Positions 1 to 22,170 of a DNA stretch of 64,000 nt are shown here, one piece after another. The position numbers and the translations under genes are program-made. How positions within the stretch are numbered: position 1 is the first letter of the stretch; each line of letters starts with the position of its first letter. A model generated the notes under the pieces. The model searched no databases. It had not been told where the DNA came from and was given only the letters and a program-made list of their open reading frames with translations. Origin of the DNA: Acinetobacter phage ZZ1; the sequence record NC_018087.3. One strand, 5' to 3'.

Positions 1-1939
1 CACTCAAAGCACAGTTGTGCAAAATGCAACAGGCCGTGCCGCAATGGCAGGTAAATTTCAGTGGGGCCCAGCTTTCCAGGTAATTCAAGTTACAAATGAA
101 GTTGAACTTGTTGATTTATTTGGTCAGCCTGATAATGCAACCGCTGATTATTTTATGAGCGCTGCAAACTTTTTACAATATGGTAATGACTTGCGTTTAG
201 TCCGTGTTGTAAATGAAGACTCGGCCAAAAACTCTAGCCCTATTGCAGGTCATTTAAAAACAACTATTACTGCGTCAGGTAGTAACTATGCTGTAAATGA
301 CAAAGTTATTATTAAGTACAATACAACAACTATTGAAGATGCTGGCGTTGTAACTGCGGTTGATAAAGACGGCAAAATCTTAAAAATCTTTGTACCTTCT
401 GAAAAAATCATTGCATATGCAAAATCAATCGGTCAATATCCTGCATTAAGTGATTCATGGACTGCAGAAGTTGTTTCAGTTGCCTCTGGTATTTCTGGTG
501 CAATTAATGTGGATTCTATTGAAACTGATTCTGGTATCTTATTAACTGATCCAGAAAATGCAGACGAAAAAATTACATCAGTTGCATTCCAAGCTAAACT
601 TGCTGCGTATGCTATGCCTGGTGTTGTTGCATTATATCCAGGTTCAACTGGCGATCAATTAGAAGTAGAAATTGTATCTAAAGAAACTTATGATAAAGGT
701 ACTGCAGTCCCTTTAACCATTTATCCTAATGGTGGTTCACGTACATCTTTAGCTAAAGCAATTTTCGGTTATGGCCCACAAAATGATAATGAATATGCAT
801 TTATTGTTCGTCGTAATGGTGAAGTTGTAGAATCATATGTTCTTTCAACTGAGCGCGGTGCAAAAGATATGTATGGAAGCAATATTTTCTTAGATGATTA
901 TTTTGCACGGGGTTCAAGTAACTATATTTTTGCAACAGCACAAGGATTCCCTAAAGGTTTTTCAGGTATCATTCGTTTATCTGGTGGTATTTCAGCTAAT
1001 GATGCAGTTACAGCTGGCGATCTTATGCAAGGTTGGGATAAATTTGCAGATTCAGAAGCACTACATGTCAATTTAATGATTGCCGGTTCTTGTGCGGGTG
1101 AAGATGCAGAAGTTGCATCAACCGTTCAAAAACATGTTGTTGCTCTTGCTGATGAACGTATGGATTGTTTGGCCCTTATCAGCCCACCCCGTGAAACTAT
1201 TGTAAATATCGGCTTAACTCGCGCTGTTGATAATTTGATTGCATGGCGTGAAGGTACTGGTGCATACGAAGCGGCTAATATGAATATTAGTTCAACTTAT
1301 GCATTTATCGATGGTAACTACAAATACCAATATGACAAATATAATGATGTAAACCGTTGGGTTCCATTGGCTGCTGATATTGCAGGTCTTTGTGCCCGCA
1401 CTGATGATATCTCTCAACCTTGGATGTCACCAGCCGGTTATGTCCGTGGTCAAATTCTTAATTGCATTAAACTTGCTATTGAGCCTCGTAAAGCACAGCG
1501 TGATAGATTATATCAAGATTCTATTAACCCAGTTATTGGTGCTCAAGGCGGCGATGGTTTCTTACTTTTTGGTGATAAAACAGCAACTAAAGTTCCATCT
1601 CCATTTGACCGTGTAAACGTACGCCGTTTATTCAATATGCTTAAAAAGAATATTGGTGACGCATCTAAATTCCGTTTATTCGAAATTAATGACGCATTTA
1701 CTCGTAGTTCATTCCGGATGGAAACAACTGCGTACTTAGCGGGTATTAAATCGCTTGGTGGTGTATACGATTTCCGAGTAGTATGTGATGAGACAAATAA
1801 TACTCCGGCGGTTATTGATCGCAATGAATTTGTTGCTACATTCTATATTAAACCGGCGCGTGCAATTAACTTCATTCAATTGAACTTTGTTGCTACTGCA
1901 ACAGGTGCTGATTTTGATGAAATCATTGGTCGTCAATAA
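1..1939 (+). CDS. 18: Tail sheath protein gp18, 5'-truncated by the window edge. The frame is open from nt 2 and the annotated GTG at 17 is internal.
   Basis: The translation aligns with T4 gp18 along its whole length (AGKFQWGPAFQ, FLQYGNDLR, WVPLAADIAGLCART, RNEFVATFYI). Confidence 0.95.
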   Translation, partial: TQSTVVQNATGRAAMAGKFQWGPAFQVIQVTNEVELVDLFGQPDNATADYFMSAANFLQYGNDLRLVRVVNEDSAKNSSPIAGHLKTTITASGSNYAVNDKVIIKYNTTTIEDAGVVTAVDKDGKILKIFVPSEKIIAYAKSIGQYPALSDSWTAEVVSVASGISGAINVDSIETDSGILLTDPENADEKITSVAFQAKLAAYAMPGVVALYPGSTGDQLEVEIVSKETYDKGTAVPLTIYPNGGSRTSLAKAIFGYGPQNDNEYAFIVRRNGEVVESYVLSTERGAKDMYGSNIFLDDYFARGSSNYIFATAQGFPKGFSGIIRLSGGISANDAVTAGDLMQGWDKFADSEALHVNLMIAGSCAGEDAEVASTVQKHVVALADERMDCLALISPPRETIVNIGLTRAVDNLIAWREGTGAYEAANMNISSTYAFIDGNYKYQYDKYNDVNRWVPLAADIAGLCARTDDISQPWMSPAGYVRGQILNCIKLAIEPRKAQRDRLYQDSINPVIGAQGGDGFLLFGDKTATKVPSPFDRVNVRRLFNMLKKNIGDASKFRLFEINDAFTRSSFRMETTAYLAGIKSLGGVYDFRVVCDETNNTPAVIDRNEFVATFYIKPARAINFIQLNFVATATGADFDEIIGRQ

Positions 1940-1945
1940 TAAAAT

Positions 1946-1959
1946 GGGCCTTCGGGCCC
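1946..1959 (+). terminator. GGGCC-TTCG-GGCCC hairpin just after the gp18 stop.
   Basis: Perfect 5-bp stem with a UUCG tetraloop. The downstream U-run is weak. Confidence 0.45.
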
Positions 1960-1980
1960 TAATAAATTAAGGATAAAATA

Positions 1981-2472
1981 ATGGAAATTACTGATATTCT
2001 CCGAGCATTTGAATCAGGCGACTTTGCCCGTCCTAACCTGTTTCAATTAGAAATTCCTTATTTAGGTAAGAATTTCACATTTAAAGCAAAAGCTACAGCA
2101 ATGCCACCAGGCCAAGTCGATAAAATTGCTATTGGCTTTATGAACCGTAAATTTAATATCGGTGGTGATCGTACATTTGACGATTGGAGTTGTACAATTT
2201 ACAATGATGACGCACATGATACTCGTCAACAAATTTTAGATTGGCAAGCATTAGTCCATGGCCAAGGTGCTGAAATTACAGGTTCTACTCCCGCTGAGTA
2301 TAAGAAAACTGCTATTATTCGTCAATATGGCCGTGATGGTAAAACTATTACCAAAGAACATACCATTTATGGATTATGGCCGACTTTGGTTGGTGAAGTG
2401 GCACTAGACTGGGATACAAATTCGGAAGTAGAAACATTTGAGTGTACATTTGCACTTGATTACTGGATTTAA
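1981..2472 (+). CDS. 19: Tail tube protein gp19.
   Basis: 163 aa, the same length as T4 gp19. Motifs FESGDFARPNLFQ, YKKTAIIRQY and LDYW match T4. Confidence 0.95.
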   Translation: MEITDILRAFESGDFARPNLFQLEIPYLGKNFTFKAKATAMPPGQVDKIAIGFMNRKFNIGGDRTFDDWSCTIYNDDAHDTRQQILDWQALVHGQGAEITGSTPAEYKKTAIIRQYGRDGKTITKEHTIYGLWPTLVGEVALDWDTNSEVETFECTFALDYWI

Positions 2473-2479
2473 TTTGCGA

Positions 2480-2517
2480 AATCCGATTGATATAAATAAT
2501 TCTATATCAATCGGATT
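2480..2517 (+). promoter_or_regulatory. 15-bp perfect inverted repeat (aatccgattgatata/tatatcaatcggatt) with the late-promoter core TATAAATA embedded at 2491-2498. It lies between genes 19 and 20.
   Basis: Read directly: arms at 2480-2494 and 2503-2517 with an 8-nt loop, and the TATAAATA octamer inside. Confidence 0.5.
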
Positions 2518-2530
2518 CAGTCTGTAGGAG

Positions 2531-4093
2531 ATGAGTATGCTAGCGGATAGTGATTTGAAAATGTTCGCATTCTGGCACAAAGTTGACGACACAGAATACG
2601 ACAAAATTATTAACGATAAAGCAGAATCTATTACTGCCCCAAAGTTTGATGACGGTGCGACAGAAGTTGATTCGCAAGATATTGCATATAATGGTGTATT
2701 CCAAAAACTTTATGGTAGTCAGGACCCAACGGCAACATCCACACGCGAATTAATCAATACTTATCGCAGTTTATTAAATAATTATGAAGTTGATAATGCT
2801 GTACAAGAAATTGTTTCAGATGCAATTGTATATGAAGAGGGTTTTGATGTAGTTTCAATTGATTTGGATCAAACCGCTTTTACCGAAAATATTAGAAATT
2901 TAATTTCAGATGAATTTAATTCTGTTTTAAATATGTTAAATTTTCAACGCAAAGGTTCTGATCATTTTAAACGTTGGTACGTCGATTCTCGTGTATTTTT
3001 TCATAAAATTATCAACCCAAATAGGCCAAAAGATGGAATTATTGAACTTCGTCGATTAGATCCACGTAATGTTCAATTCGTCCGTGAACTTGACACCAAA
3101 ATGGAAAATGGTGTTAAAGTTGTAAAAGGTTATCGCGAATATTTTTTATATGATACAGAATTAGAATCATATCAATGCGGTCATCAACATTTTGCAGCTG
3201 GTACAAAAATTAAAATTCCATATTCTGCTATGGTTTATGCCCATTCGGGATTAGTAGACTGTTGTGGTAAAAATATTATCGGATATTTACATAGAGCAGT
3301 AAAACCGGCAAATCAATTAAAATTGCTTGAAGACGCAATGATGATTTACCGTATTACACGTGCTCCAGACCGTCGTGTTTTTTATATTGATACCGGTAAT
3401 ATGCCTGCTCGTAAAGCTGCACAACATATGCAGCATATTATGAATTCACATAGAAATAGAATTTCATATGATGCAAGAACGGGTAAAGTAAAAAATCAAG
3501 CCAATATGATGGCCTTAACTGAGGATTATTGGCTACAACGACGTGATGGTAAAGCTGTCACAGAAGTTGAAACATTACCAGGTATGACCGGAATGAATGA
3601 AATGGATGACATTTTATATTTCCGTAAAGCACTTTATATGGCGCTTAGAGTACCATTATCACGTATTCCTGATGAACAAACACAAAATGTGTTTGATATG
3701 TCAACGGCTATTTCAAGAGATGAATTATCATTTGATAAGTTTATTTCGGAATTACAACATAAATTTGAGGAAATTTTCCTCAGTCCGTTAAAAAGTAATC
3801 TTTTACTTAAACGCGTAATTACAGAAGATGAGTGGGAAGCAGAACTAAATAATATTAAGATTGTGTTCCACAAAAATTCATACTTTTCAGAAATGAAAAC
3901 GATTGAAATAACGGAACGCCGCGTTAATGTTTTAAGTTTAATGGAACCTTATATTGGAAAGTATATTTCTAACCATACTGCCATGAAAGACTTCTTGCAA
4001 ATGTCAGACGAAGACATCGCAGCCGAACGAAAGCTCATTGATGAAGAGCTATCAGACAAAATATTTAACCCACCAGAACCAGAGGAAATCTAA
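2531..4093 (+). CDS. 20: Portal vertex protein gp20.
   Basis: 520 aa. Long blocks are identical to T4 gp20 ([55 protein letters not shown]). Confidence 0.95.
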
Positions 4094-4344
4094 TGAGCGA
4101 TATTATCCAAGCCATTAATTCCAACGACCTTGTAAAATTTAAGCGATGCTTTGCTGAAGCTATGAAGGAAAAAGTTGGAAAAATCTTAAAAGAAGAACAA
4201 CTTGCTATTGCCAAAAGCATCATGGTTGAAGGCGAATATGTTGTTGAATCAGAAGAAGACGCTATCGAAGATGAAGACGATGGCTCTAATGATGCAGACA
4301 ATGATGATAAAAAGAAAAAGAATCATAAAAAAGACGAGGACTAA
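4093..4344 (+). CDS. 67: Small acidic prohead core protein (gp67-like).
   Basis: 83 aa with an acidic D/E-rich C-terminus. It sits in the T4 gp67 position and its start overlaps the gp20 stop (ATGA). Confidence 0.65.
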
Positions 4345-4346
4345 AA

Positions 4347-4772
4347 ATGCAACTTATTGTTGAGAACGAATTAGTTTTTGATGATGTAGTTAATTTTTTG
4401 CCAGAAGCTGAACAACGATTTAAGGATTTATCTGCTGTATTTTCACATGAAGAAATTCAACGTATCGTCGAAAATATGGTAGATAAAACACCTATTATGG
4501 CAATTGCATTAGGTTCACTTGTTGAATCTATGCCATTAAATGAATTTATGGTTAAGCATGTTAGTTCTAAAGGTGAATTAACTCGCACCAAAGACCGTAA
4601 AACTCGTCAGCGTCTTGCATTTCAAACTACAGGTTTATCTAAATCAGCTCGCCGCCAAATCGCTCGCAAAGCTGTTAAAACCAAAAAAGCTAATCCAAAT
4701 GATCAAATTCGTGCCCAAAAGAAAATTAAAAAGGCAAAACTTAAACGTAAATCAATGTATGGATTAGACTAA
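4347..4772 (+). CDS. 68: Prohead core protein gp68-like.
   Basis: 141 aa, the same length as T4 gp68, with a basic C-terminus, in the T4 position between 67 and 21. Confidence 0.65.
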
Positions 4773-5416
4773 TGACCGAAGAAATGCTACTTATTGAGCA
4801 TTGGGGTCAACCAGCAACCGTTAATGATGTTACACCGACGATGATTAGCGAATCAGCTAATGGTAAATTAAAACCGGGATTATATATCGAAGGTGTATTT
4901 CTTCAAGCAGAAGTAGTTAATAGAAATAAGCGTCTTTATCCAAAACGTATTCTTGAAACTGCTGTTGATAAGTACATTAAAGAACAGGTTGTTACAATGC
5001 AGGCTTTGGGTGAATTAAATCATCCTGCTCGAGCCCATGTTGATCCAATGCAAGCTGCCATTATCATTGAAGATATGTGGTGGGAAGGTAATAATGTTAT
5101 GGGCCGCGCTCGTATTATTGAGGGTGATAATGGTCCAGGTGATAAACTTGCTGCAAATATTAGAGCAGGCTGGATTCCAGGAGTATCTAGTCGAGGTTTA
5201 GGGTCAATTAAAAGTTCCGGCCGAGGTTATAATATTGTACAAGAAGGTTTCCGTTTAACAGTGGGTGTAGATGCTGTTTGGGGCCCAAGTGCACCTGATG
5301 CCTTTGTTACACCAAAACAAATTACTGAGAGTGTAGAACCAGCTGAAGAACCGGTTAAAAGTTCAAGTGCTGATTCAGCTTTTAAAACCTTAATTGGCAA
5401 CTTAAAAGCATTATAA
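4772..5416 (+). CDS. 21: Prohead core scaffold and protease gp21.
   Basis: 214 aa, against 212 aa in T4, in the syntenic position. The start overlaps the preceding stop. Confidence 0.85.
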   Translation: MTEEMLLIEHWGQPATVNDVTPTMISESANGKLKPGLYIEGVFLQAEVVNRNKRLYPKRILETAVDKYIKEQVVTMQALGELNHPARAHVDPMQAAIIIEDMWWEGNNVMGRARIIEGDNGPGDKLAANIRAGWIPGVSSRGLGSIKSSGRGYNIVQEGFRLTVGVDAVWGPSAPDAFVTPKQITESVEPAEEPVKSSSADSAFKTLIGNLKAL

Positions 5417-5419
5417 ATA
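5412..5419 (+). promoter_or_regulatory. Late-promoter core TATAAATA upstream of gene 22.
   Basis: Exact octamer 27 nt upstream of the gp22 ATG. Confidence 0.45.
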
Positions 5420-5445
5420 AAAGTATATTAAAACAGGACACCAAA

Positions 5446-6282
5446 ATGCTGAAAGAACAATTACTCAATGAAGCGAAAACTATTACCGCTTCTGTAGAAT
5501 TAGACGGTATTTTTGAATCAGTTGAACTTTCACCAGAAACTCAAGAAAGCTTCAAAACAGTATTCGAACAAGCCGTTAAGAAAAACGCTGTTGATTTGGC
5601 TGAAAAGCATATTTTAGATATTGCTGAAAAAGCTGAAGAAAAATTAGAAGAAGCTACTTTAGCTGCAACTACTAAGCTTGAAGAAAAAATGTTAGCAATC
5701 GCAGACAAATTCTTTGAACATACTGCTGCAGATTGGCTCGCTGAAAATAAAGTCGAAGTCCATCGTGGAATCAAAGCTGATTTATTTGAATCTATGTTTG
5801 GTGGTTTAAAAGCATTGTTTGTTGAGCATAATGTTGAACTTCCTGCAGAATCTGTTGATGTTGTTGCAGAAATGGAAGAAGAACTCCAAGAAACAAAAAA
5901 TGAAACTTCTAAATTATTTGATACTTTAACAGAAACACAAAGTGAATTAAGTGAATTAAAACGCACAGTCGCTGTTGATAAAGCGGTTGCGGATTTAACA
6001 GAATCACAAAAAGAAAAAGTTCATAACTTAATTGAAGGTTTAGATTATAGCGATACTTTTGATGTTAAGTTGAATGCAATTGTTGAAATGGCTAAGGGCT
6101 CAAAAGAAGCACCAGTTCTTTCAGAATCAACTCAAAATGAGCCAGTTGCAAATGAACTAAATAAAGTTAATGATGCTGATGCTGCTGGACTTAATTTTGT
6201 CGTAGAAGCACATGAACCAGCTGAAGAAGCTAAACCAACAACTAATATGAACCGCTACGTTTCTGCGGCGCAAAAGCTTTAA
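5446..6282 (+). CDS. 22: Prohead core scaffold protein gp22.
   Basis: 278 aa, very acidic and predicted alpha-helical, in the T4 gp22 position immediately upstream of gp23. Confidence 0.8.
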   Translation: MLKEQLLNEAKTITASVELDGIFESVELSPETQESFKTVFEQAVKKNAVDLAEKHILDIAEKAEEKLEEATLAATTKLEEKMLAIADKFFEHTAADWLAENKVEVHRGIKADLFESMFGGLKALFVEHNVELPAESVDVVAEMEEELQETKNETSKLFDTLTETQSELSELKRTVAVDKAVADLTESQKEKVHNLIEGLDYSDTFDVKLNAIVEMAKGSKEAPVLSESTQNEPVANELNKVNDADAAGLNFVVEAHEPAEEAKPTTNMNRYVSAAQKL

Positions 6283-6307
6283 TAAAATTTTTATAGGTAC
6301 ATAACAC

Positions 6308-7888
6308 ATGACTACTAAACAAAAATCACAATCTGATCTTATGGTTGAAAACTGGACTCCACTTATTGAAGCTGAAGGCCTTCCAGAAATTTCAAAAGAC
6401 AAATATAAAATTATGGCCCGCATTTTCGAAAATCAAGAAAAAGATTTCGAAACTGGTATTGAATATCGTGACCCAGAAATTGCTAAAGCATTTAGTGGCT
6501 TCTTAGCTGAAGCTGAAGTTGGCGGTGACCATGGTTACGACGCAACAAATATTGCAGCTGGTCAAACTTCTGGTGCAGTGACGCAAATTGCTCCTGCTGT
6601 TATGGGTATGGTTCGTCGTTCACTTCCAAATTTAATCGCATTTGATATTGCTGGTGTTCAACCACTTGACAAACCTACTGGCCAATTCTTTGCAGTTCGT
6701 TCTGTTTATGGTGCTGACCCTCTTGCAGCTGGTGCTAAAGAAGCATTACACCCAATGTTCTCACCTGACACAATGCATTCTGGTCAAGGTGCGGCTGAAG
6801 CATTTGAAAACGTTAAAGCTGGTGATTCATTAGCAATTGGTGACATTAAACGTCATGACTTTGCAGATACTGGCCGTGTTTATATCCAAGCGGTTAAAGC
6901 TGTAACTGTTGACGCTGGTGCAACTGATGCAGAAAAACTTGATATCGAAGTTAAAAAATTGATGGAAGCTGGTTCTGTTGCTGAAATCGGTGAAGGTATG
7001 GCTACTTCTGTTGCTGAACTTCAAGAAGGTTTCAATGGTTCAACAGGTAATCCTTGGAATGAAATGTCATTCCGTATTGACAAACAATCAGTTGAAGTTA
7101 AATCACGTCAATTAAAAGCACAATACACAATTGAACTTGCTCAAGACTTAAAAGCTGTTCATGGTATGGATGCTGATGCTGAATTAGCTGGTTTACTTGC
7201 TACTGAAATTATGCTTGAAATCAACCGTGAAATCGTTGACTGGATTAACTTCTCTGCTCAAATCGGTAAAACTGGTTGGACACAAGCTCCTGGTTCTAAA
7301 GCTGGTGTGTTTGATTTCCAAGACCCAGTAGATGTTAAAGGCGCTCGTTGGGCTGGTGAAGCTTACAAAGCACTCTTAATCCAAATCGATAAAGAAGCTT
7401 CTGAAATTGCACGTCAAACAGGTCGTGGTATTGGTAACTTTATCATTGCATCTCGTAACGTTGTAATGGCTCTTGCTCAAGTTGATACTAATGTAACTCC
7501 AGCTGCTCAAGGTCTTGCAAAAGGTCTTAACTACGATACAACTAAAGCAACATTTGCTGGTGTATTAGGTGGCCGTTATAAAGTTTATATCGATCAATAT
7601 GCTCGCCAAGACTACTTCACAGTAGGTTTCAAAGGCGGTAGTGAAATGGATGCTGGTATCTACTACATGCCATATGTTCCATTAACACCATTACGCGGTG
7701 CTGATCCTAAGAACTTCCAACCTGTGATGGGCTTCAAAACTCGTTATGCAGTTGGTGTGAACCCGTTCGCAAACTCTGCTGAACAAGCTCCTGCTGGTAA
7801 TAAGCGTATTAGCAATGGTATGCCTACTATCGAAAATTCTGCAGGTAAAAATGCATACTTCCGTAAGGTATATGTTAAAGGAATTTAA
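6308..7888 (+). CDS. 23: Major capsid protein gp23.
   Basis: 526 aa. Very long identities with T4 gp23 (FENQEKDF, GGDHGY.ATNIAAGQTSGAVTQI.PAVMGMVRR, AELQEGFNGST.NPWNEM.FRIDKQ, NAYFR.VYVKGI). Confidence 0.97.
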   Translation: MTTKQKSQSDLMVENWTPLIEAEGLPEISKDKYKIMARIFENQEKDFETGIEYRDPEIAKAFSGFLAEAEVGGDHGYDATNIAAGQTSGAVTQIAPAVMGMVRRSLPNLIAFDIAGVQPLDKPTGQFFAVRSVYGADPLAAGAKEALHPMFSPDTMHSGQGAAEAFENVKAGDSLAIGDIKRHDFADTGRVYIQAVKAVTVDAGATDAEKLDIEVKKLMEAGSVAEIGEGMATSVAELQEGFNGSTGNPWNEMSFRIDKQSVEVKSRQLKAQYTIELAQDLKAVHGMDADAELAGLLATEIMLEINREIVDWINFSAQIGKTGWTQAPGSKAGVFDFQDPVDVKGARWAGEAYKALLIQIDKEASEIARQTGRGIGNFIIASRNVVMALAQVDTNVTPAAQGLAKGLNYDTTKATFAGVLGGRYKVYIDQYARQDYFTVGFKGGSEMDAGIYYMPYVPLTPLRGADPKNFQPVMGFKTRYAVGVNPFANSAEQAPAGNKRISNGMPTIENSAGKNAYFRKVYVKGI

Positions 7889-7910
7889 TCGATACGATTA
7901 ACCTGAAATT

Positions 7911-7940
7911 AAAAAGGAGCCATGCGGCTCCTTTTATTTT
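7911..7940 (+). terminator. Rho-independent terminator after gene 23.
   Basis: GGAGCC-atgc-GGCTCC hairpin followed by TTTTATTTT. Confidence 0.7.
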
Positions 7941-7981
7941 ATGTAATATCTAAATATGTTATATAACCTAGGAATAATAAA

Positions 7982-9253
7982 ATGAAACGTATTGACCAAC
8001 TAATTACAGAGTCAACAAATACTCAAGCGGATAGTTTGGCTAGACCTGCATTATTATCATTAACACGTGCAACAACAAAATTAATTTATCAAGATTTAGT
8101 GGCTTCTCAGCCGACAGATCAACCATTGGCAGCATTATACGGTATCAAATATCTAAACCCTAACAAAGAATTAACTTTTCTTACAGGGGCAACTTATGGT
8201 GGTCAATATGGCGTTGGTGATCGCGAATCTATGCCTATTTTATCAAATGCCAATAAAGATTCATTTAAAAAAGGTGATTTATTTATCTTTCAAAATGTAG
8301 TTTTTAAAGTTCTTAAAGATGCCCCATTTGATGGAACAACTGAAACCGAATTATTTGATATTGTATCAGAAGCTAATGCTGCCTCAACAGTTCGTATGGC
8401 ACCAGAAGCTGCGGATGTTATGAAATTTGAAACTCATAATGCAGAAATTGCTGAAGCTGGATTTGTTGTAAACAAATGGCAAGCAGAAGTAAAAAGCCGC
8501 AAACTAAAGACAGAATTAACTGTTGAGCTTATCCAGGACATGGAAGCAAATGGATTTAATGCACCAGAAATGATTGAAGATATTCTTGCTACTCAAATGG
8601 CAGAAGAAGTTAATAAAGATGTAATGCAATCATTAGTTACAGTTTCAAAACGATTTAAAGTTGCAGGCGTTTCGGATAAAGGTGTTTTAGACTTATCGAC
8701 AGTAGGTAGTTCTGTTGAACAAGCTCGAAATTTATATCGTTATATCTGTGAAATGAATGCATCTATTCAACGTCAAACATCGTATTCTGCAACATATGTT
8801 GTTGCCACGTCTCGTGTTGCGGCTTTATTAGCTTCATCAGGTTGGATGAATCAACAAGATGACCAACCCGATGCAGCATATGGTACATTATTAAACGGAT
8901 TACATGTATATTGTGACAATAATAGTCCAGTAGAATATGTTATTGTTGGTGTTAAAGATACTTATGGTTCTGACGAAATGATCGGTTCATTATTTTATGC
9001 ACCTTATACCGAAGGTCTTAGTCCTGAAGCCGACCCGACAGACCATGTAGGGGCATATACTGTTATTAATGACGCATCATCATTACAACCAAAAATTGCA
9101 TTATTATTACGATATGCACTTTGTGTAAATCCGTATACAATGGGATTAGATGATTCTGAAGCACGAGTTATTGACGCTTCAGATATGGATCAATTTGCAG
9201 GTCAAAGTGATATGTCTGTATTACTTGGTGTTAAATTGCCAAAACTTGTGTAA
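7982..9253 (+). CDS. 24: Head vertex protein gp24.
   Basis: 423 aa, against 427 aa in T4. It is a gp23-fold paralogue (WQAEVKSRKLK like gp23 KSRQLKA) in the syntenic position. Confidence 0.88.
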   Translation: MKRIDQLITESTNTQADSLARPALLSLTRATTKLIYQDLVASQPTDQPLAALYGIKYLNPNKELTFLTGATYGGQYGVGDRESMPILSNANKDSFKKGDLFIFQNVVFKVLKDAPFDGTTETELFDIVSEANAASTVRMAPEAADVMKFETHNAEIAEAGFVVNKWQAEVKSRKLKTELTVELIQDMEANGFNAPEMIEDILATQMAEEVNKDVMQSLVTVSKRFKVAGVSDKGVLDLSTVGSSVEQARNLYRYICEMNASIQRQTSYSATYVVATSRVAALLASSGWMNQQDDQPDAAYGTLLNGLHVYCDNNSPVEYVIVGVKDTYGSDEMIGSLFYAPYTEGLSPEADPTDHVGAYTVINDASSLQPKIALLLRYALCVNPYTMGLDDSEARVIDASDMDQFAGQSDMSVLLGVKLPKLV

Positions 9254-9258
9254 TAAAT

Positions 9259-15331: not shown

Positions 15332-15727
15332 TCAACGTCCAGCGCCAGATAATTGTAATTTCAATTGTTCTAGTGTATCAGGATTATCTAGGATACTGAA
15401 TAAGACTGTTACGATAATCGCATTGGCATCATATTGTGCTTGCACATCAACTGAAAGTCTAACAACCCTTGGTTCATATCGTCTAATTGCCGATGTAATA
15501 CTTTTTTCAATAGTATTGGCTGTTAAAGGTGTCATATTTTCAAATAAGCTATCACCAATATCACATCCGAATTCTGGATCAAATGGTTTCGATCCTTTAG
15601 GTGTAGTAATAATTCCAACTAAAGAATTTTTAACCGCTCGGGCCCCGACTGAAGATGACATGTCTCTATTCCATGCCATCTTCATATCGGGTGATATGTC
15701 TTTATACATATCATTAATATTTTGCAT
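15332..15727 (-). CDS. 25: Baseplate wedge subunit gp25.
   Basis: 131 aa, against 132 aa in T4. Strong identity (GIITT.KGS.PFDPEFGCD, LFENMTPLTA, IDNPD..EQ.KLQL). Confidence 0.95.
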   Translation of the reverse strand: MQNINDMYKDISPDMKMAWNRDMSSSVGARAVKNSLVGIITTPKGSKPFDPEFGCDIGDSLFENMTPLTANTIEKSITSAIRRYEPRVVRLSVDVQAQYDANAIIVTVLFSILDNPDTLEQLKLQLSGAGR

Positions 15728-16371
15728 TATAAAATCTCCATAAAGCTCTTAAACCCTTTTATAATATGAACATGTGATTTGCCACATGATTTACATTTAA
15801 TTGGTACGGGTAAAACCGGTTTTGGTGTCAATAAAATATTTTTAATTTTTTGAAGATGATCTTCTGTTAATAATTCATATAAATCATTTAATTCAGTGTC
15901 ATTTAAATCTTCAATATTAATACGTTCTGTACCAATATAAATTGCCTCTATGCATTCAACAATCATTTTGGTAATATTATCATCAGCCCAAAGCTTTGGC
16001 CAACGTAGTTTTAATTTAAATTTATCGATTGGATATAATTCTTCAATTGATACATCATTATAATCAATATAAGTATGGCTAACATTTAATTTAACACTTT
16101 GTGTATGTCCACATTCGCATGTATAATCTTGCTGAACAATATCTTCATGTTCTGATGCTGCTATTAACATAATCAAAATTAATTCGGCTTGATGTTTTTC
16201 ATTGTGCGTATACGATGTATTGTTCATTAAAATATCGGAATATGCTTTTTTCAATAATTCGGAATCTGCATTTAGTTTTGCCAAATTTAATGCAGTATGT
16301 TCTCTCAATGTATAAGTTTTAGCGTTAACAGATTCGGTATCAAGATTGATCGATAATTTTTTTTCAAACAT
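15727..16371 (-). CDS. 26: Baseplate hub subunit gp26.
   Basis: 214 aa, against 208 aa in T4, with synteny upstream of 25 and overlapping start/stop. Confidence 0.75.
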   Translation of the reverse strand: MFEKKLSINLDTESVNAKTYTLREHTALNLAKLNADSELLKKAYSDILMNNTSYTHNEKHQAELILIMLIAASEHEDIVQQDYTCECGHTQSVKLNVSHTYIDYNDVSIEELYPIDKFKLKLRWPKLWADDNITKMIVECIEAIYIGTERINIEDLNDTELNDLYELLTEDHLQKIKNILLTPKPVLPVPIKCKSCGKSHVHIIKGFKSFMEIL

Positions 16372-16438: not shown

Positions 16439-17193
16439 ATGGCTAATATTATTAGATGTAAATTACCAGACGGCGTTCATCGTTTCAAACCATTTACTGT
16501 TGCTGATTACCGTGACTTTTTACTGGTTAGAAATGATATGGTCAGTAAAGACGAAGAAGAACAAGAAGTTTTGGTGAATGAGCTTGCTGCAGATTATTTT
16601 GGTGAATACCCAGAATCATGGCAGCATTATTTTTTTTTCAAGCCTTTACGGGATCAATTGGTAAAACTAAAATTCCAATTGTATTTGAATGTCCTGTATG
16701 CGGCAAAAAAACAAAGCGATTATTTAATTTGTCTCAGGGACCTTTAGATAACCCTAAAGTACAGTTAAATGACGATACTTATATTTCATTTAAATTTCCA
16801 GAAAATTTAGAAGACGAACCAAGTCAATTGATATTAAAAAATGTAGATAAAATTGAATATCAAGGTTCTACTTATAATTGGATGGAATTATCGAAAGAAA
16901 CACAAGATGCAATAATTTCAATGATTAATTTTGAAAAGTTTGAAGCTATTGTTAAAATGTTAAAGCCCCTGCATTTTGAAATGAAATTAAAGTGCTGTGA
17001 AGAACATACCTTGGTTTATGATGATTTATGTTCTATTTTTAAATTATTAATAAATCCTGACGAAGTATTTCCATTTTATGAAATTAATCATATCTTAATT
17101 AAAAATAATTATGATATTAATTCAATTATGGCAATGCTTCCAGCAGAACGTTCAATTGCTTTATCTTTGATTGAAAAGGATAATAAAAAATGA
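16439..17193 (+). CDS. 51: Baseplate hub assembly protein gp51, interrupted by a frame change at a T9 homopolymer. The N-part is in frame 2 to 16747 and the C-part in frame 1 from 16618.
   Basis: The two ORFs (102 and 191 aa) overlap around T9 at 16630-16638. Joined, they give about 250 aa, the size of T4 gp51 (249 aa). The C-part has a CPVCGKK zinc-finger-like motif. Confidence 0.65.
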
Positions 17194-18779
17194 CAGTGCA
17201 ACAAAAACCAGGATATCCTAACGTTAGTATTAAGTTGTATGAAGATTATGATGCTTGGACGGATAATCGATTTGTAGAATTGGCTGCAACATTTACAACA
17301 TTAACAATGCGTGATGGTCTATACGGAAGAAACGAAGGTATCTTGCAATTTTATGATAATAAAAATATGCATATGAAAATGGATGGAGATCAAATTGTTC
17401 AGATTTCATTATCTAATGCAAATTCTAAAGATGTAGTAACTCGATTATATGGTGTTAAAGATAGTTCTGTTTCTGTTGATTCTAAAGGCGATAATATTAT
17501 TGCGTTTAATTTAGCACCCTTACATGTTGTTGAAAATGTGTTATTTAGCAGAGCATTTTTTGCTAATGCTACTGAAACTATTCAAACTATGATCGATTCA
17601 ATTTATCAGAAACGTGCCGAGATTAAGCCTAAAGTAGAAGGTATTAACATTTATGTACCTCGTGTTGCTTGGGTTAATGGTATTACTGAATATATGGATT
17701 ATGTTCGTGAAATTGGTATTTCTGTTGATTCGGAAACACATGCCTTTGTTTGGGAAGATATTTCTGGTATTAATATTACTGATTATAAATTTTTAATTGA
17801 TCAAAAACCTCGCGTTATGGTTGTCGGGGATCAAAAACAAGTCGGTTCTTATGTTCAGCATATGGAATATGGTCTGGCTTATGATTTTACATGGTTAACT
17901 AAAACAAATCGCAATATACGCAACCCTTTAACTGATGTTACAATATATTCACATTCATTTAATGATAAAGAAATTCAGCGTATTTCAATTGGAGAAGGTA
18001 CAAATACTGTTGTTGTATCTCGTTCTGGTGGATATTCTGAAATGACATATCGTAATGGATATGAAGAGGCCTTTAGATTATTAACAATGGCCCAATATGA
18101 TGGTTATGCTACATGCAAATTAGTTGGTGATTTTACTTTAACGCCTGGTGTCAAATTGAATTTCGGCGATCGTAAAAATCAATTCGCTACTGATTTTTAT
18201 ATTGATGAAGTCGTACATGTTATTACAAATAATTCATCAGAGACACATTTATACATGTTTACTAATGGTAAAGACTTAGTTCCTGTTGAAATTGAAAAAA
18301 TTAAAAATGAAATCGAAACTATCACACCGCCTTCAGATACAACACAACCAGAAGCGATGGGTGATAAGAAAGGTGCTCAATGGGATTTAGATAAATTGGC
18401 CGAAGTTGTCACAAGAAATGCTCAAGGACGTAAAGCTACTGGTAAATGTGCATTGTATGTTCGTAAGGCATTACAGGCAGCACAATTGCAAAGTTTCTTT
18501 GCCGGTGGTTTAGGAAATGCAAATGAAATGGCTAAACCTCTTGAAAATATGGGCTGGATTGCTGTTGGTCAAAATGTTAAAAACGTTAAAAAAGGCGATA
18601 TTTCAATATTCATGAAAACTAATACCCCATTAGGTTCACAGTATGGACATATTGCGATCTTTAATGGAAGTCAATGGGTGTCAGATTTTATTCAAAATAG
18701 TGTACAACCTAATTCAAAAGATAACTTAACTTATACAGTTTATAGAGCACGTTATGGTTATAGTGCGGGAGGTAATTAA
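17190..18779 (+). CDS. 27: Baseplate hub subunit gp27 fused to a C-terminal CHAP-like cysteine peptidase domain of about 140 aa.
   Basis: The N-terminal roughly 385 aa are collinear with T4 gp27 (PGYPN.S.KL...YDAW..NRFVELAAT.TTLTMRD.LYGRNEG.LQFYD, SRSG.YSEMTYRNGYEEA.RL.TMAQYDGYA). T4 gp27 ends near this point at 391 aa. Here the frame continues with TGKCALYVRKAL ... YGHIAIFNGSQWVSDF, a Cys...His pattern typical of CHAP/NlpC-P60 amidases. Confidence 0.85.
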   Translation: MTVQQKPGYPNVSIKLYEDYDAWTDNRFVELAATFTTLTMRDGLYGRNEGILQFYDNKNMHMKMDGDQIVQISLSNANSKDVVTRLYGVKDSSVSVDSKGDNIIAFNLAPLHVVENVLFSRAFFANATETIQTMIDSIYQKRAEIKPKVEGINIYVPRVAWVNGITEYMDYVREIGISVDSETHAFVWEDISGINITDYKFLIDQKPRVMVVGDQKQVGSYVQHMEYGLAYDFTWLTKTNRNIRNPLTDVTIYSHSFNDKEIQRISIGEGTNTVVVSRSGGYSEMTYRNGYEEAFRLLTMAQYDGYATCKLVGDFTLTPGVKLNFGDRKNQFATDFYIDEVVHVITNNSSETHLYMFTNGKDLVPVEIEKIKNEIETITPPSDTTQPEAMGDKKGAQWDLDKLAEVVTRNAQGRKATGKCALYVRKALQAAQLQSFFAGGLGNANEMAKPLENMGWIAVGQNVKNVKKGDISIFMKTNTPLGSQYGHIAIFNGSQWVSDFIQNSVQPNSKDNLTYTVYRARYGYSAGGN

Positions 18780-19339
18780 TGCAAGGTATTCATTTAAATA
18801 TTGTACCGGAAACTAAACAGCTAAATGTAAACGGTAAAACTATTAAAGTCCCAAAGCTGGGACTTAAGCATAGATTACTTTTAAAGCCAAATGAAAATCA
18901 TGAAGAGTCAATGAAAACATTATTAGCTTCTATTGCTCCTAATTTATCCATGGCAGAGCGTGATCTATTAACTATACATTTACTAGCGTATAATGGTAAG
19001 ATTCCAAATACGGTCATTAAGGACGGTCATACGTATTCTATTGAAGATGTGTATATATGCCAGAAATTAAAATTCACATATGGTGATTACGAGTTCAAAT
19101 TTAGATCACCTACATTTGAACTTTTGAAAGGTCCGGCCGATATACTGCTAAGTCAATGTTGTGTATATGTTAAAAAGAATGATGAAAAAATACAAGTGCC
19201 TGATTTTATGGATTTGCCTCCATTTGTCATTAATTGGGTGGAACAAATTACAAAAACGATTGCTATTGATGGTCCAAACGGACCAATTAAAGGCCTTTAT
19301 GAATTAGTGGAGTTATTCGATGGACCAACCAGCTCGTAA
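18779..19339 (+). CDS. 28: Baseplate hub distal subunit gp28.
   Basis: 186 aa, against 177 aa in T4, syntenic, with ATGA overlap. Confidence 0.75.
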   Translation: MQGIHLNIVPETKQLNVNGKTIKVPKLGLKHRLLLKPNENHEESMKTLLASIAPNLSMAERDLLTIHLLAYNGKIPNTVIKDGHTYSIEDVYICQKLKFTYGDYEFKFRSPTFELLKGPADILLSQCCVYVKKNDEKIQVPDFMDLPPFVINWVEQITKTIAIDGPNGPIKGLYELVELFDGPTSS

Positions 19340-21077
19340 TATTAATAGCTTGCGTAGACAGGCTATTCCTGCCGCAAATGATGAAAACTTATCAGAAACT
19401 AGTTCATTACGTCGCGAAGTGCTTTTGGCCAATCAGACTAAAGCACAACAAATGCAAGCTGAAGCCGCAAATGATGAGGTAACAGAGTCTGAACGCCAAA
19501 CGGAAGCATCTGAAACCCAAGTTAAACAAAATATTGATCAAATTGTAAATCAAAAAACTCAAATTGATCAAGGTGCTATAGGTAATTTATCATTATCAGA
19601 GATTTCATCTAATACGGGTGAAATGAATATTAAATTAGCCGCTTTAAGCGAACGACTTAAAGAAAAATATGAGGCTGCTAATGATGCTACTGTTGATTTA
19701 CCGGTTAAGGCCGAAGAACCTACTACATCAGAAAGTTTAAGTAGTAGAATTTCACCCGAAGACACAAATAACAATGTTATTCCTTCAGTAGTAGCCGATG
19801 ACCCAAAGCCATCAAAAGATCTTTTAGAAAGTACCAATGAAGTTAAAGGTGCACCCTCATTAGGGCCGGCTGCAATGATTGTCTCAGGACTTCAAACTTT
19901 AACAGGTGCAGTTAAAACAGGCTTTGCTAAATCCAAATCTGTTAGTGATAAAATTGCGGGTATGCTTTTTAAATATACTGTAACTCAAGCCGTCAATGCT
20001 GCTAAAATTGCTTTGGCTGTATTTGGAATTATCTTAGCGTTAGATTTACTTAAAATGGCATGGAATGCCTGGGGCGAAAAAATAATGGCTAAGTTTGAAG
20101 AATGGACTCAAACGTTTTCTAAATGGTGGGATAATTTTAAAGAATGGTCTACATATTTTTCTGATATGAAATATGCCTTTGAGGGTATGCAAGGCGATTT
20201 AATGGGTATCAGAAATGCTTGGGAATCTGGCGATTGGCCTGCATTAGCTTCTGCAATTGGCACTGCTTTTGTGGATGGGATAAAAACTTTAAGTGGTATT
20301 ATGGATCGAGTGATAACAAAATTAATCGCTACAATTTTGAATAAACTTGGGTTTAAAGACACTGCAAAATCTATCGAAGCTGAAGGCTTGCAAAGATATC
20401 AGAATATGACTAATAATAAGTTAGACCCTGAAAATCAGCAAAAACTGGCAGAAGAACAACTTAAACGTGAAAAGAAAGACGGTCTTACTTCTACTCAAAG
20501 AGGCGTAACATCATTTTTACCAGATTCATGGCGAGAGAAACTCGGTTTTATTACTAAAAATGAGCATTCTCAAATTGAAGCTGAAAAGAAAGACCAGAAG
20601 GCTCGACAATCTCTTAGTAAAGATGATCAAGTTAAAGTGGTTGCTGCTAGTAATGAAGCCAGAGAAGCTGTGGCTAGATTAGAAAATATTGCAGTCAATG
20701 CTGATCCAAATAATAAAGGCCAAATGGCTACTTTGGATAAATACAGAAAAGAAGCTCAAAATTATATAAATAATCCTGCTTTGTCAAAATCACCTAATGT
20801 TAAAGCTGAATTACAAAATCAATTAGATCGTTTGACACCAAAACAATCTGTCAAAAATACAGTAACGCCTGAAACATCAACTGCGAGCAAAGACGTTCAA
20901 ACAGCAAAAAATATTCAAATTGCAGAAGCCCAAAAGGCTAAAACAAATGCTGTTCAGAACAATAATACAGCAAATGTTCAGAACAATATTGTTAAATCTA
21001 GTCGACAATATAATGTTCAAGCCCCTATTACAGGTACTGCGGCACCAGGTATTTTTAAGGCAACAGGTGTAAATTAA
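19320..21077 (+). CDS. 29: Baseplate hub subunit and tail length determinator gp29.
   Basis: 585 aa, against 590 aa in T4, with a coiled-coil-rich sequence, in the syntenic position. Confidence 0.8.
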   Translation: MDQPARNINSLRRQAIPAANDENLSETSSLRREVLLANQTKAQQMQAEAANDEVTESERQTEASETQVKQNIDQIVNQKTQIDQGAIGNLSLSEISSNTGEMNIKLAALSERLKEKYEAANDATVDLPVKAEEPTTSESLSSRISPEDTNNNVIPSVVADDPKPSKDLLESTNEVKGAPSLGPAAMIVSGLQTLTGAVKTGFAKSKSVSDKIAGMLFKYTVTQAVNAAKIALAVFGIILALDLLKMAWNAWGEKIMAKFEEWTQTFSKWWDNFKEWSTYFSDMKYAFEGMQGDLMGIRNAWESGDWPALASAIGTAFVDGIKTLSGIMDRVITKLIATILNKLGFKDTAKSIEAEGLQRYQNMTNNKLDPENQQKLAEEQLKREKKDGLTSTQRGVTSFLPDSWREKLGFITKNEHSQIEAEKKDQKARQSLSKDDQVKVVAASNEAREAVARLENIAVNADPNNKGQMATLDKYRKEAQNYINNPALSKSPNVKAELQNQLDRLTPKQSVKNTVTPETSTASKDVQTAKNIQIAEAQKAKTNAVQNNNTANVQNNIVKSSRQYNVQAPITGTAAPGIFKATGVN

Positions 21078-21087
21078 GGTTAATTAT

Positions 21088-22170
21088 ATGCAAGTTAAAG
21101 AGTTAACAAGTGACTTTATGGCCAAAGCCGGTAGTATTATTTCTGCCGGGCAAAGTCAAAAGTCGAAAGAAACAAAAACTAAAATTATGACCGCTCAGTT
21201 TCCAGCTGAGCGTGCTGCTAGTGTTGATACAACAAATGCTGCGGAAGTAGGACAAAATTATCAAAATGGCTTACTTTTTACTGCATACGAGTACACATCT
21301 AGAACAACACCTGATTTAAGATCAATGCGACAACGTGTTCAAAAATCATACAAAGTTTTAGAAAGTACTCAAAAAATACTTTCTGCTGTTGCGGGAGTAT
21401 CTGGCCAAACTGAAGGCCGTTCTACAAGTAAAGCACCAGTTGCAAATATTTTAATGCCTAGATCAAAAACAGATTCAGATAATACATCTCATAAATTTAA
21501 TGATGTTGGAGAATCTTTAATCACTCGTGGTAACGGTTCACCGACAGGTATTTTATCTAATATGGCATCAACTGCTGTATTTGGTGCAATTGAATCTGCA
21601 ACACAAGGCGCAATGGCTGATCATGGTGAACAAATCTATAACACATCAAGATCAATGTATGCAGGCGCTGAAAATCGTACTAAAACATATTCTTGGGATT
21701 TAACACCAAGAACACCAGAAGATTTAAGCCAAATTTTAAAGATTTATGAAATTTTTAATTATCTGTCATATGGTATGACCGGCAATTCGGCTTTTGCAAA
21801 ATCAATTAAAGATGAAATTGATAATTGGTATAAGAAGACATTTATTAAGCCAATTAATGATGCGACCGGAACAACAACACAGTCAACCGTAATGGAATCA
21901 GTTACAAGCTTTTTATCCAATGTAATTGTTGTTTCAAATCCAACAGTATGGTTTATTCAAAATTTTGGTACGCAATCAAAATATGATGGTCTTGCCGATA
22001 TTTTTGGACCAGCCCAGATTTCTAATATTAGATTTGAAAAGACATCTGATGGTAATTTTAATGGGTTGGCCATTGCACCAAATATGCCTTCAACTTTTGT
22101 GTTGGAAGTTACATTTCGTGAAATTCTTACTCTTAATAGAGCATCATTATATGGTGAGGACGTATTATGA
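21088..22170 (+). CDS. 48: Baseplate tail tube cap gp48.
   Basis: 360 aa, against 364 aa in T4, syntenic. Confidence 0.8.
   Translation: MQVKELTSDFMAKAGSIISAGQSQKSKETKTKIMTAQFPAERAASVDTTNAAEVGQNYQNGLLFTAYEYTSRTTPDLRSMRQRVQKSYKVLESTQKILSAVAGVSGQTEGRSTSKAPVANILMPRSKTDSDNTSHKFNDVGESLITRGNGSPTGILSNMASTAVFGAIESATQGAMADHGEQIYNTSRSMYAGAENRTKTYSWDLTPRTPEDLSQILKIYEIFNYLSYGMTGNSAFAKSIKDEIDNWYKKTFIKPINDATGTTTQSTVMESVTSFLSNVIVVSNPTVWFIQNFGTQSKYDGLADIFGPAQISNIRFEKTSDGNFNGLAIAPNMPSTFVLEVTFREILTLNRASLYGEDVL

Follow-up and report, generated by a model that had tools for sequence, protein, structure and literature searches.

The subject of this work is gene 27 of Acinetobacter phage ZZ1, which lies in a stretch of 64,000 nucleotides of sequence record NC_018087.3 (hereafter the window), and in particular the part of its product, the baseplate hub protein gp27, that extends beyond the homology to gp27 of phage T4. 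The gene is an uninterrupted open reading frame (ORF) of 1,590 nt encoding 529 amino acids (aa) and a stop codon (Table 1). Its product matches the baseplate hub family phrog_1135 of PHROGs with E 1e-183 and contains the Pfam domains Phage-tail_1 (PF09097, aa 5-199) and Phage-tail_2 (PF09096, aa 202-374), which score 264 and 233 bits against gathering cut-offs of 27 and 25, respectively. Residues 1-384 of T4 gp27 (1K28_D, 391 aa) align with its aa 1-383 (phmmer, E 9e-152), with 57% identity in the core, and the AlphaFold2 (AF2) model superposes on T4 gp27 with a template-modelling (TM) score of 0.96 and a root-mean-square deviation (rmsd) of 1.7 Å over 375 columns. From the two Pfam domains, the full-length T4 alignment and the position in the hub gene cluster, gene 27 encodes a normal T4-type gp27 hub. 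The gene is 100% identical to the coding sequence (CDS) annotated 'baseplate hub' in two further Acinetobacter phages, Henu6 (MK240351) and vB_AbaSt_W16 (PP174317; hereafter W16), and has 74% DNA identity to gene 27 of Acj9.

Past the end of the T4 homology, the ORF runs on for about 145 residues, positions 18300-18779 corresponding to aa 371-529 and the stop codon. This agrees with the first-pass annotation, made from the letters of the window, which had placed the end of the homology at about aa 385 and had described the continuation of the same ORF for about 140 aa. The extension consists of a linker of about 22 residues, containing ETITPPSDTTQPEAMGDKKGAQ, and a domain of about 125 aa, which, based on the evidence below, is very probably a peptidoglycan peptidase or amidase borne by the virion. 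In the full-length AF2 model aa 361-398 have no secondary structure, with a predicted local distance difference test (pLDDT) value below 50 at aa 374-385. The linker differs in sequence, and slightly in length, among the fusion homologues, where its identity to that of the window is only 9-45%, as compared with 51-79% for the core and 48-94% for the extra domain. In the homologues with such low linker values, core and extra domain remain at 50-78%. By these identities the extra domain is conserved to the same degree as the gp27 core and is under purifying selection, and the pattern as a whole reads as the signature of two selected folded units on a free tether, in agreement with the full-length model. 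An internal start giving separate expression of the domain was also considered and was rejected, because the homologues do not share the linker residue Met389.

Table 1. Features of gene 27 and of the surrounding hub genes (positions in the window; A1 is the alignment of the window domain and 40 homologues)
Feature	Position	Strand	Basis or remark
Gene 27, complete ORF, baseplate hub gp27 with C-terminal extension	17190..18779	+	ORF list; Pfam PF09097, PF09096, CHAP; phrog_1135
gp27 core, aa 5-374, the four hub domains that form the channel, homologous to the whole of T4 gp27	17202..18311	+	phmmer; AF2 superposition
Linker, aa ~375-397	18312..18380	+	predicted unstructured, fast-evolving
Predicted Tae3-like CHAP-superfamily peptidoglycan hydrolase domain, aa 398-522	18381..18755	+	Pfam, PHROGs, PDB sequence matches, Foldseek
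Cys420 codon TGT, predicted catalytic nucleophile	18447..18449	+	aligns to Tae3 C23; invariant in A1
His487 codon CAT, predicted catalytic base	18648..18650	+	aligns to Tae3 H81; invariant in A1
Asp499 codon GAT in WVSDFxQ, candidate third polar active-site residue	18684..18686	+	invariant in A1 (domain D119)
Gene 25	15332-15727	-	Pfam/PHROGs, W16 annotation
Gene 26	15727-16371	-	Pfam/PHROGs, W16 annotation
Gene 51, hub assembly catalyst, overlaps gene 27 start, split in two frames	16439..17193	+	Pfam T4_baseplate, phrog_150/634
Gene 28, baseplate hub distal subunit, start codon overlaps gene 27 stop	18779..19339	+	Pfam Phage_hub_GP28 E 8e-39; phrog_1140
Gene 29, hub subunit / tail tape measure	19320..21077	+	Pfam T4_Tape_measure E 2.6e-48; phrog_1283
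Gene 48, tail tube cap	21088..22170	+	Pfam T4_tail_cap E 3e-134

Family, predicted fold and predicted active site of the extra domain

When the extra domain is compared as a single sequence with all PDB sequences (phmmer), the sole significant match is 4HZ9_A, with E 6e-6 and a pairwise identity of about 26-30%. The matching chain is Tae3, an amidase effector of Ralstonia pickettii's type VI secretion system (T6SS), with the catalytic dyad C23/H81 (PMC11796386). With the profile of alignment A1 (41 sequences), the match to Tae3 reaches E 1.9e-33 and takes in residues 6-118 of its 119 aa (hmmsearch), as compared with E 0.04-0.3 for other CHAP and NlpC/P60 structures. Among the PHROGs families, the domain matches phrog_38472, 'endolysin', with E 6e-14. 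In Pfam, the isolated tail scores 26.9 bits with CHAP (PF05257), barely above the 26-bit gathering cut-off, and shows a weak match of 20 bits to Tae4, and NlpC/P60 (PF00877) gives zero matches to gp27 at E up to 1. The sequence evidence for the hydrolase domain as a whole lies far outside what chance would give. The CHAP score of the relatives of the domain varies from none up to 36 bits, and the precomputed Pfam assignments flag PF05257 on only part of the fusion clusters.

The predicted structure points in the same direction. In the AF2 model of the isolated domain (pLDDT 76.8; 85-91 for the domain in the full-length model), N-terminal helices bear the cysteine and are followed by a beta-sheet bearing the histidine, giving an alpha+beta papain-like fold. 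The best Foldseek match of this model is again Tae3 4HZ9_A (E 1e-7, probability 1.00, TM 0.83 when normalised to Tae3, rmsd 2.2 Å). Below it rank a CHAP endolysin, Tae4, NlpC1, Acd24020, MepS and the CHAP 'cleaver' of the phi812 hub, the similarity to NlpC1, MepS and Acd24020 being weak (E 0.02-0.06). Judged by sequence and model, the extra domain falls within the papain-like superfamily CHAP/NlpC-P60, in its Tae3 branch and outside Pfam NlpC/P60 proper, and its closest characterised relative is the T6SS peptidoglycan amidase effector Tae3. The CHAP / NlpC-P60 signature that had been read from the sequence at first is thus borne out at the level of the superfamily (by Tae3 and by Foldseek); the Pfam CHAP score lies at the borderline, and the signature does not extend to PF00877. 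Since the domain is joined to a structural protein of the phage and is flanked by genes 51 and 28, with no T6SS genes, it is regarded as a homologue of the Tae3 enzyme and not as a T6SS effector. Note also that no immunity gene is apparent beside the domain, its neighbours being these two genes, with Tai3 homology in the window not searched directly.

Next, we consider the active site. Both motifs named in the first-pass annotation were located, GKCALYVRKAL spanning aa 418-428 and YGHIAIFNGSQWVSDF spanning aa 485-500, and the spacing it had given, a Cys followed about 70 residues later by GH[IV]A, amounts to 67 residues from Cys420 to His487. By counting residues in the phmmer alignment, Tae3 C23 corresponds to C420 and Tae3 H81 to H487, and the Tae3 counterpart of WVSDFxQ is WISDF. 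The invariant columns of A1 are the Cys motif C-A-L-Y-V-R, G-D, G-H and W-V-S-D-F-x-Q, the last of which includes Asp499, a candidate catalytic residue. In a library of 1.84 billion proteins, in which the Tae3-like family has 860 representatives, the pattern C...GH...WxSD is present in 134 of the best 148 representatives. Within the gp27 clusters longer than 500 aa, Gly486, Trp496 and Asp499 are kept in all 36, and Cys420 and His487 in 35 of the 36, the exception for both being P0375. In this protein of 698 aa the Tae3-like domain is degenerate (Cys->Ser, His->Tyr) and a second, canonical CHAP domain lies behind it. As P0375 has lost the Cys and the His but gained a second CHAP domain, catalysis would be the property that is selected. 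Two other metagenomic gp27 variants of about 745 aa (P0367 and P0373) keep the Cys and the His and have a VanY/M15 peptidase added. The C-terminus of gp27 is therefore a place where wall-degrading modules accumulate, and it gives the impression of a modular site at which lytic domains dock.

The same data bear on the alternative of a module without catalytic activity, with a peptidoglycan-binding or structural function, by which the tip of the tube would be anchored or oriented in the wall, or which the hub would use as a clamp or in its assembly. A dead CHAP fold is known in a baseplate, namely the 'clip' domain of the phi812 weld protein, which is without Cys-His-Glu (PMC13433997), and the retention of the domain in P0375 despite the two substitutions implies that the fold may be valuable beyond catalysis. 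However, P0375 is the sole degenerate copy and is compensated by its extra CHAP domain, the Cys and His are kept in all the other fusion clusters (and Asp499 in every one) down to 51% overall identity, all three being invariant in A1, and the model shows the domain on a disordered linker and not packed against the core. We consider this alternative to be unlikely.

Another alternative is a protease with proteins, and not murein, as its substrates, which might, for example, process a phage hub or tape-measure protein in assembly or cleave a host periplasmic protein or lipoprotein (such as a Braun-lipoprotein-like tether) at entry. The papain-like fold underlies many proteases, Foldseek gives distant matches to deubiquitinases and transglutaminases, and T4 gp5 is known to mature by proteolysis. 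By contrast, these protease-like matches all have E >1, every significant match in sequence or structure is a peptidoglycan hydrolase (Tae3, Tae4, CHAP endolysins, NlpC/P60 enzymes and MepS), and relatives of the domain are fused to other murein hydrolases, i.e. a VgrG3-like muramidase and the VanY M15 peptidase. An action on proteins is thus very unlikely, and we retain the assignment of the domain as a peptidoglycan peptidase or amidase.

Distribution, relatives and genomic setting

A tblastn search with the extension matched 78 phage records, 70 of them at >=80% coverage, and in every Acinetobacter T4-like phage that was matched (Acj9, Acj61, Ac42, 133, KARL-1, AbTZA1 and others) the extension lies under the gene-27 CDS. 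Among 5.8 billion proteins searched, gp27 falls into three length classes: an ordinary one of 297-406 aa, about 34 clusters of 518-534 aa, and three clusters of 698-746 aa. All 83 retrieved gp27 clusters of non-Acinetobacter type are 297-406 aa long. Among the matches retrieved, the gp27 fusion has a restricted distribution, in the Acinetobacter T4-like phages. It had been noticed already around 2010 in GenBank, where the gene 27 records of phages 133 and Ac42 state 'fused to (the conserved) hypothetical Acinetobacter protein', with no function assigned there, and nothing specific on the function of the gp27 extension was found in open-access papers and bioRxiv.

This distribution also answers whether the extension could be an artefact of annotation or sequencing, in which two adjacent genes are joined through a missed stop or a frameshift. 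The window is probably not free of homopolymer errors, with at least one in gene 51, next to gene 27. But some 70 phage genomes sequenced independently, and about 34 protein clusters with identities of 51-100%, have the fusion without interruption, and the linker, in spite of its variable sequence, is free of stops across the homologues. An artefact is thus extremely improbable, and the case of a stop codon separating the extension into an ORF of its own, which the first-pass annotation had named as refuting its claim, is ruled out. Two matters of naming were met in the same searches. NCBI gives the cluster P0272, which is a gp27 fusion, the name 'LysM domain protein [Acinetobacter baumannii]', so that a phage protein is listed with a bacterial assembly. 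Also, the records CAKLQH020000017 and CAKLQF020000020, labelled 'Acinetobacter phage MD-2021a', contain ordinary bacterial chromosome (dusA, acnA, LysR regulator).

Outside gp27, the nearest relatives of the module, at 50-55% identity, are internal domains of phage proteins of 1,000-1,700 aa (P0122-P0136), several of which also have a VgrG3-like C-terminal muramidase domain (PF21277). One relative of this PF21277 type (L007:10001-13135) is on a metagenomic phage-like contig near a T4_baseplate-family gene. Further copies are present in phage tail-fibre-like giants of 2,400-2,950 aa, in a metagenomic myovirus 'tail tape measure' and, as found by a fold search in BFVD, in a 1,159-aa protein of Campylobacter phage CP220. 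In Campylobacter phage CJLB-12, a 1,184-aa ORF with a Tae3-like domain (L010:3715-7269) lies directly upstream of a gp48-like tube-cap gene. It matches phrog_38472 and has zero Pfam matches, such Eucampyvirinae genes being annotated 'endolysin' or 'membrane protein', and from its position upstream of gp48 its product may be an equivalent of the hub or of the tape measure (gp29-like). Its counterpart in CP21 (L005:4520-7242) is broken into three CDSs. Taken together, the copies in gp27, in the Campylobacter phage proteins and in tape-measure proteins imply that the module has been used repeatedly in tail-tip proteins.

Bacterial relatives, at 30-40% identity, are abundant in Bacteroidota and in Moraxellaceae, the family of the host (Acinetobacter, Moraxella and Psychrobacter). 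In Acinetobacter sp. ANC 3813, two paralogues stand in tandem (L012:5617-6390 and 6568-7116) amid housekeeping genes and without an obvious signal peptide, the copy of Moraxella catarrhalis (L026:5683-6360) has a clear signal peptide, and a further Moraxellaceae chromosomal homologue lies at L006:5719-6228. The Moraxellaceae copies are unannotated ('hypothetical') and are presumably periplasmic murein hydrolases. The occurrence of relatives in the host family matches the GenBank wording 'hypothetical Acinetobacter protein' on gene 27 of 133 and Ac42. An origin of the bacterial relatives in T6SS loci was considered as well, and no direct link was established at the loci examined: the Moraxellaceae copies examined have no T6SS neighbours, their surroundings being housekeeping genes (thyA/folA-like, dusA, lgt-like), and the Bacteroidota copy P0075 has no obvious T6SS cluster around it.

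As regards the setting of gene 27, the order of the hub cluster in the window is the T4 gene order, according to Pfam, PHROGs and the W16 annotation. Gene 51 is present as two overlapping ORFs (16439-16747 and 16618-17193), its counterpart in W16 being a single 756-nt CDS. The break is caused by a change in a T-run at about 16630-16640, where the window has TTATTTTTTTTTC and W16 has TTATATTTTTTTAC; this is probably a homopolymer sequencing error, a real frameshift being less likely. It is also noted that positions 1-9257 of the window, from the tail sheath to the head vertex genes, have only 99.06% identity to W16, in spite of the full identity of gene 27, and that the window coordinates cross the record start of both W16 and Henu6, so that the window derives from a record with another permutation or from a closely related isolate.

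A proposed role in cell entry

In T4, the wall is degraded by the lysozyme domain of gp5, and the first-pass annotation had left it between an additional and an alternative murein peptidase on the hub. Gene 5 lies outside the window, as that annotation had said (tblastn of the window gives zero matches), and it was therefore read from the near-identical phage W16. There, the gene 5 product (593 aa) contains Gp5_OB, Phage_lysozyme and a C-terminal beta-helix and is followed by the PAAR protein gp5.4. It aligns to T4 gp5 with E 7.5e-152 and to T4 lysozyme with E 1e-30, and the context of the catalytic Glu, Asp and Thr is intact (GDEG...YWD...YPTVGIGH). As the lysozyme domain is retained, the predicted gp27 enzyme is an additional one and not a replacement, and two different enzymes that degrade the wall are probably present on the injection device.

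Based on these results, we propose the following course of events. Upon sheath contraction, the gp5 spike would breach the outer membrane and the gp27-gp5 tip would reach the periplasm, with three tethered Tae3-like domains riding on the tip of the tube. The gp5 muramidase would then cut the glycan strands and the gp27 domain the peptide stems or cross-links, so that the joint work of the two enzymes would make a hole large enough to admit the tube. Because gp27 remains at the tube tip once gp5 departs, the gp27 enzyme might be able to go on working. We consider this course to be likely, and within it we infer the presence of the domain in the mature virion, its enzyme activity, the bond that is cut and the help to infection.

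Several points weigh against this proposal. The CHAP match is borderline in Pfam and falls to a sub-threshold 24.3 bits within the full protein, and NCBIfam has no family matching the extra domain or its bacterial homologues. Open-access papers and bioRxiv yielded no experiment on the domain and no enzymatic or virion proteomic data; with no virion proteomics found, the domain might be cleaved off or never exposed. The models are of monomers, and three extra 14-kDa domains would have to fit around the gp5 lysozyme domains inside a T4-type baseplate; no lid or immunity-like partner was identified that would silence the enzyme in the virion. As to the bond, Tae3 reportedly cuts the mDAP-D-Ala cross-link (mDAP, meso-diaminopimelic acid) in the work of Russell et al. 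(2012), and a DD-endopeptidase specificity of the gp27 domain would follow by analogy with Tae3; a review describes Tae3 only as a 'peptidoglycan amidase'.

It could also be imagined that the domain acts late or outside the cell, as an auxiliary lysin, as a factor of lysis from without, or as an interbacterial toxin-like factor in the manner of an evolved VgrG effector. By family the domain goes with a genuine T6SS toxin, the N-terminal part of VgrG has gp27 as its homologue in phages, and the full-length model matches VgrG structures. However, the domain lacks its own signal sequence and is a covalent part of a late structural baseplate protein, the phage possesses separate lysis genes (with RI lysis inhibition annotated), and a virion, with its three copies, would hardly lyse a cell unless the multiplicity were very high. 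Such a role is thus quite unlikely, and we return to the action of the domain at entry.

A reason for the host restriction of the fusion may lie in the murein. A review lists Acinetobacter and Campylobacter, but not E. coli, as Gram-negatives in which O-acetylation of the murein is known or predicted (PMC6783866). O-acetylation inhibits muramidases such as the gp5 lysozyme, and so, speculatively, a cutter of peptides on the hub would be required for an efficient entry; the Campylobacter T4-like phages, whose hosts are on the same list, carry the same module in another tail-tip protein. The fusion could then be a host-specific adaptation, a phage 'evolved VgrG', in which the gp27 C-terminus is a general docking site, as the variants with an added VanY peptidase or second CHAP domain would show, and wall-degrading modules are swapped among phage tail tips, T6SS effectors and host autolysins. 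We put this wider idea forward only tentatively, considering it doubtful.

If the proposal of a second enzyme at entry is true, the T4-type phages, for which wall degradation by gp5 only is the textbook case, can add a second, chemically complementary enzyme on gp27, and the cell-puncturing device would be modular like the evolved VgrG spikes. A T6SS toxin family, Tae3, would also be tied to the phage entry machinery. In addition, the domain would be a small, conserved, natural 'from-without' peptidoglycan hydrolase against Acinetobacter baumannii, a priority pathogen of the World Health Organization, and a candidate module for enzybiotics or engineered lysins. The conserved fusion is, moreover, a handy marker of the Acinetobacter T4-like phage lineage.

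Comparison with known systems

With the gp27-gp5 device of T4 (1K28), the present one shares the superposable gp27 core, the gene order 25-26-51-27-28-29-48 and, as seen in W16, a gp5 with OB, lysozyme and beta-helix parts plus the PAAR protein gp5.4. The difference is that T4 gp27 stops at residue 391 and has no enzymatic domain, the gp5 lysozyme being the only wall-degrading activity there.

With Tae3 (4HZ9/4HZB), the extra domain shares the sequence family, the predicted fold, the positions of the Cys and His and the WxSDFxQ motif, and a contractile injection machine delivers Tae3, and would deliver the gp27 domain, into the periplasm of a Gram-negative cell. By contrast, Tae3 is a free cargo of about 120-140 aa with an immunity protein, Tai3, and serves in killing competitors, whereas the gp27 domain is covalently fused to the hub and would serve in the entry of the phage itself.

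The evolved VgrG proteins, for example VgrG3 of V. cholerae, are likewise gp27/gp5-like spike or hub proteins with a C-terminal peptidoglycan-degrading domain that is carried to the target periplasm. In them, however, the effector domain comes after the gp5-like beta-helix, whereas here the domain comes directly after the gp27 module, and the VgrG effectors are toxins with immunity proteins. The virion-associated hydrolases of tape-measure and tail-tip proteins have the same Tae3-like module (in the myovirus tape measure and in the Campylobacter phage protein of 1,159-1,184 aa), but their carriers are not gp27 homologues and the module is at another position.

A precedent in a single polypeptide is found in the hub of Staphylococcus phage 812/K (9EUF, 9EUM), in which a clamp and, at the C-terminus, a CHAP 'cleaver' with activity in zymograms accompany the gp27-like domains I-IV, and further hub proteins with enzymatic domains exist (PMC13433997). 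As here, a channel-forming hub of gp27 type and a C-terminal Cys-His peptidoglycan hydrolase are joined in one chain. The full-length gp27 model aligns to 9EUF_E with E 2e-11, and the extra domain matches 9EUM weakly (Foldseek E 0.08). The differences are that phi812 belongs to the Herelleviridae and infects a Gram-positive host, that its hub has a saposin-like clamp domain and a weld-protein lid, that its CHAP is of a distant subfamily with Cys-His-Glu, and that its central spike is without lysozyme, whereas the gp5 lysozyme is kept here. In view of this hub and of the GenBank notes on 133 and Ac42, which record the fusion, the arrangement is less unusual for a cell-puncturing device than had been thought at first. 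Hub proteins with lytic domains are established, and what is particular here is that the carrier is a bona fide T4-type gp27, that the gp5 lysozyme is kept, and that the enzyme belongs to a T6SS-toxin family.

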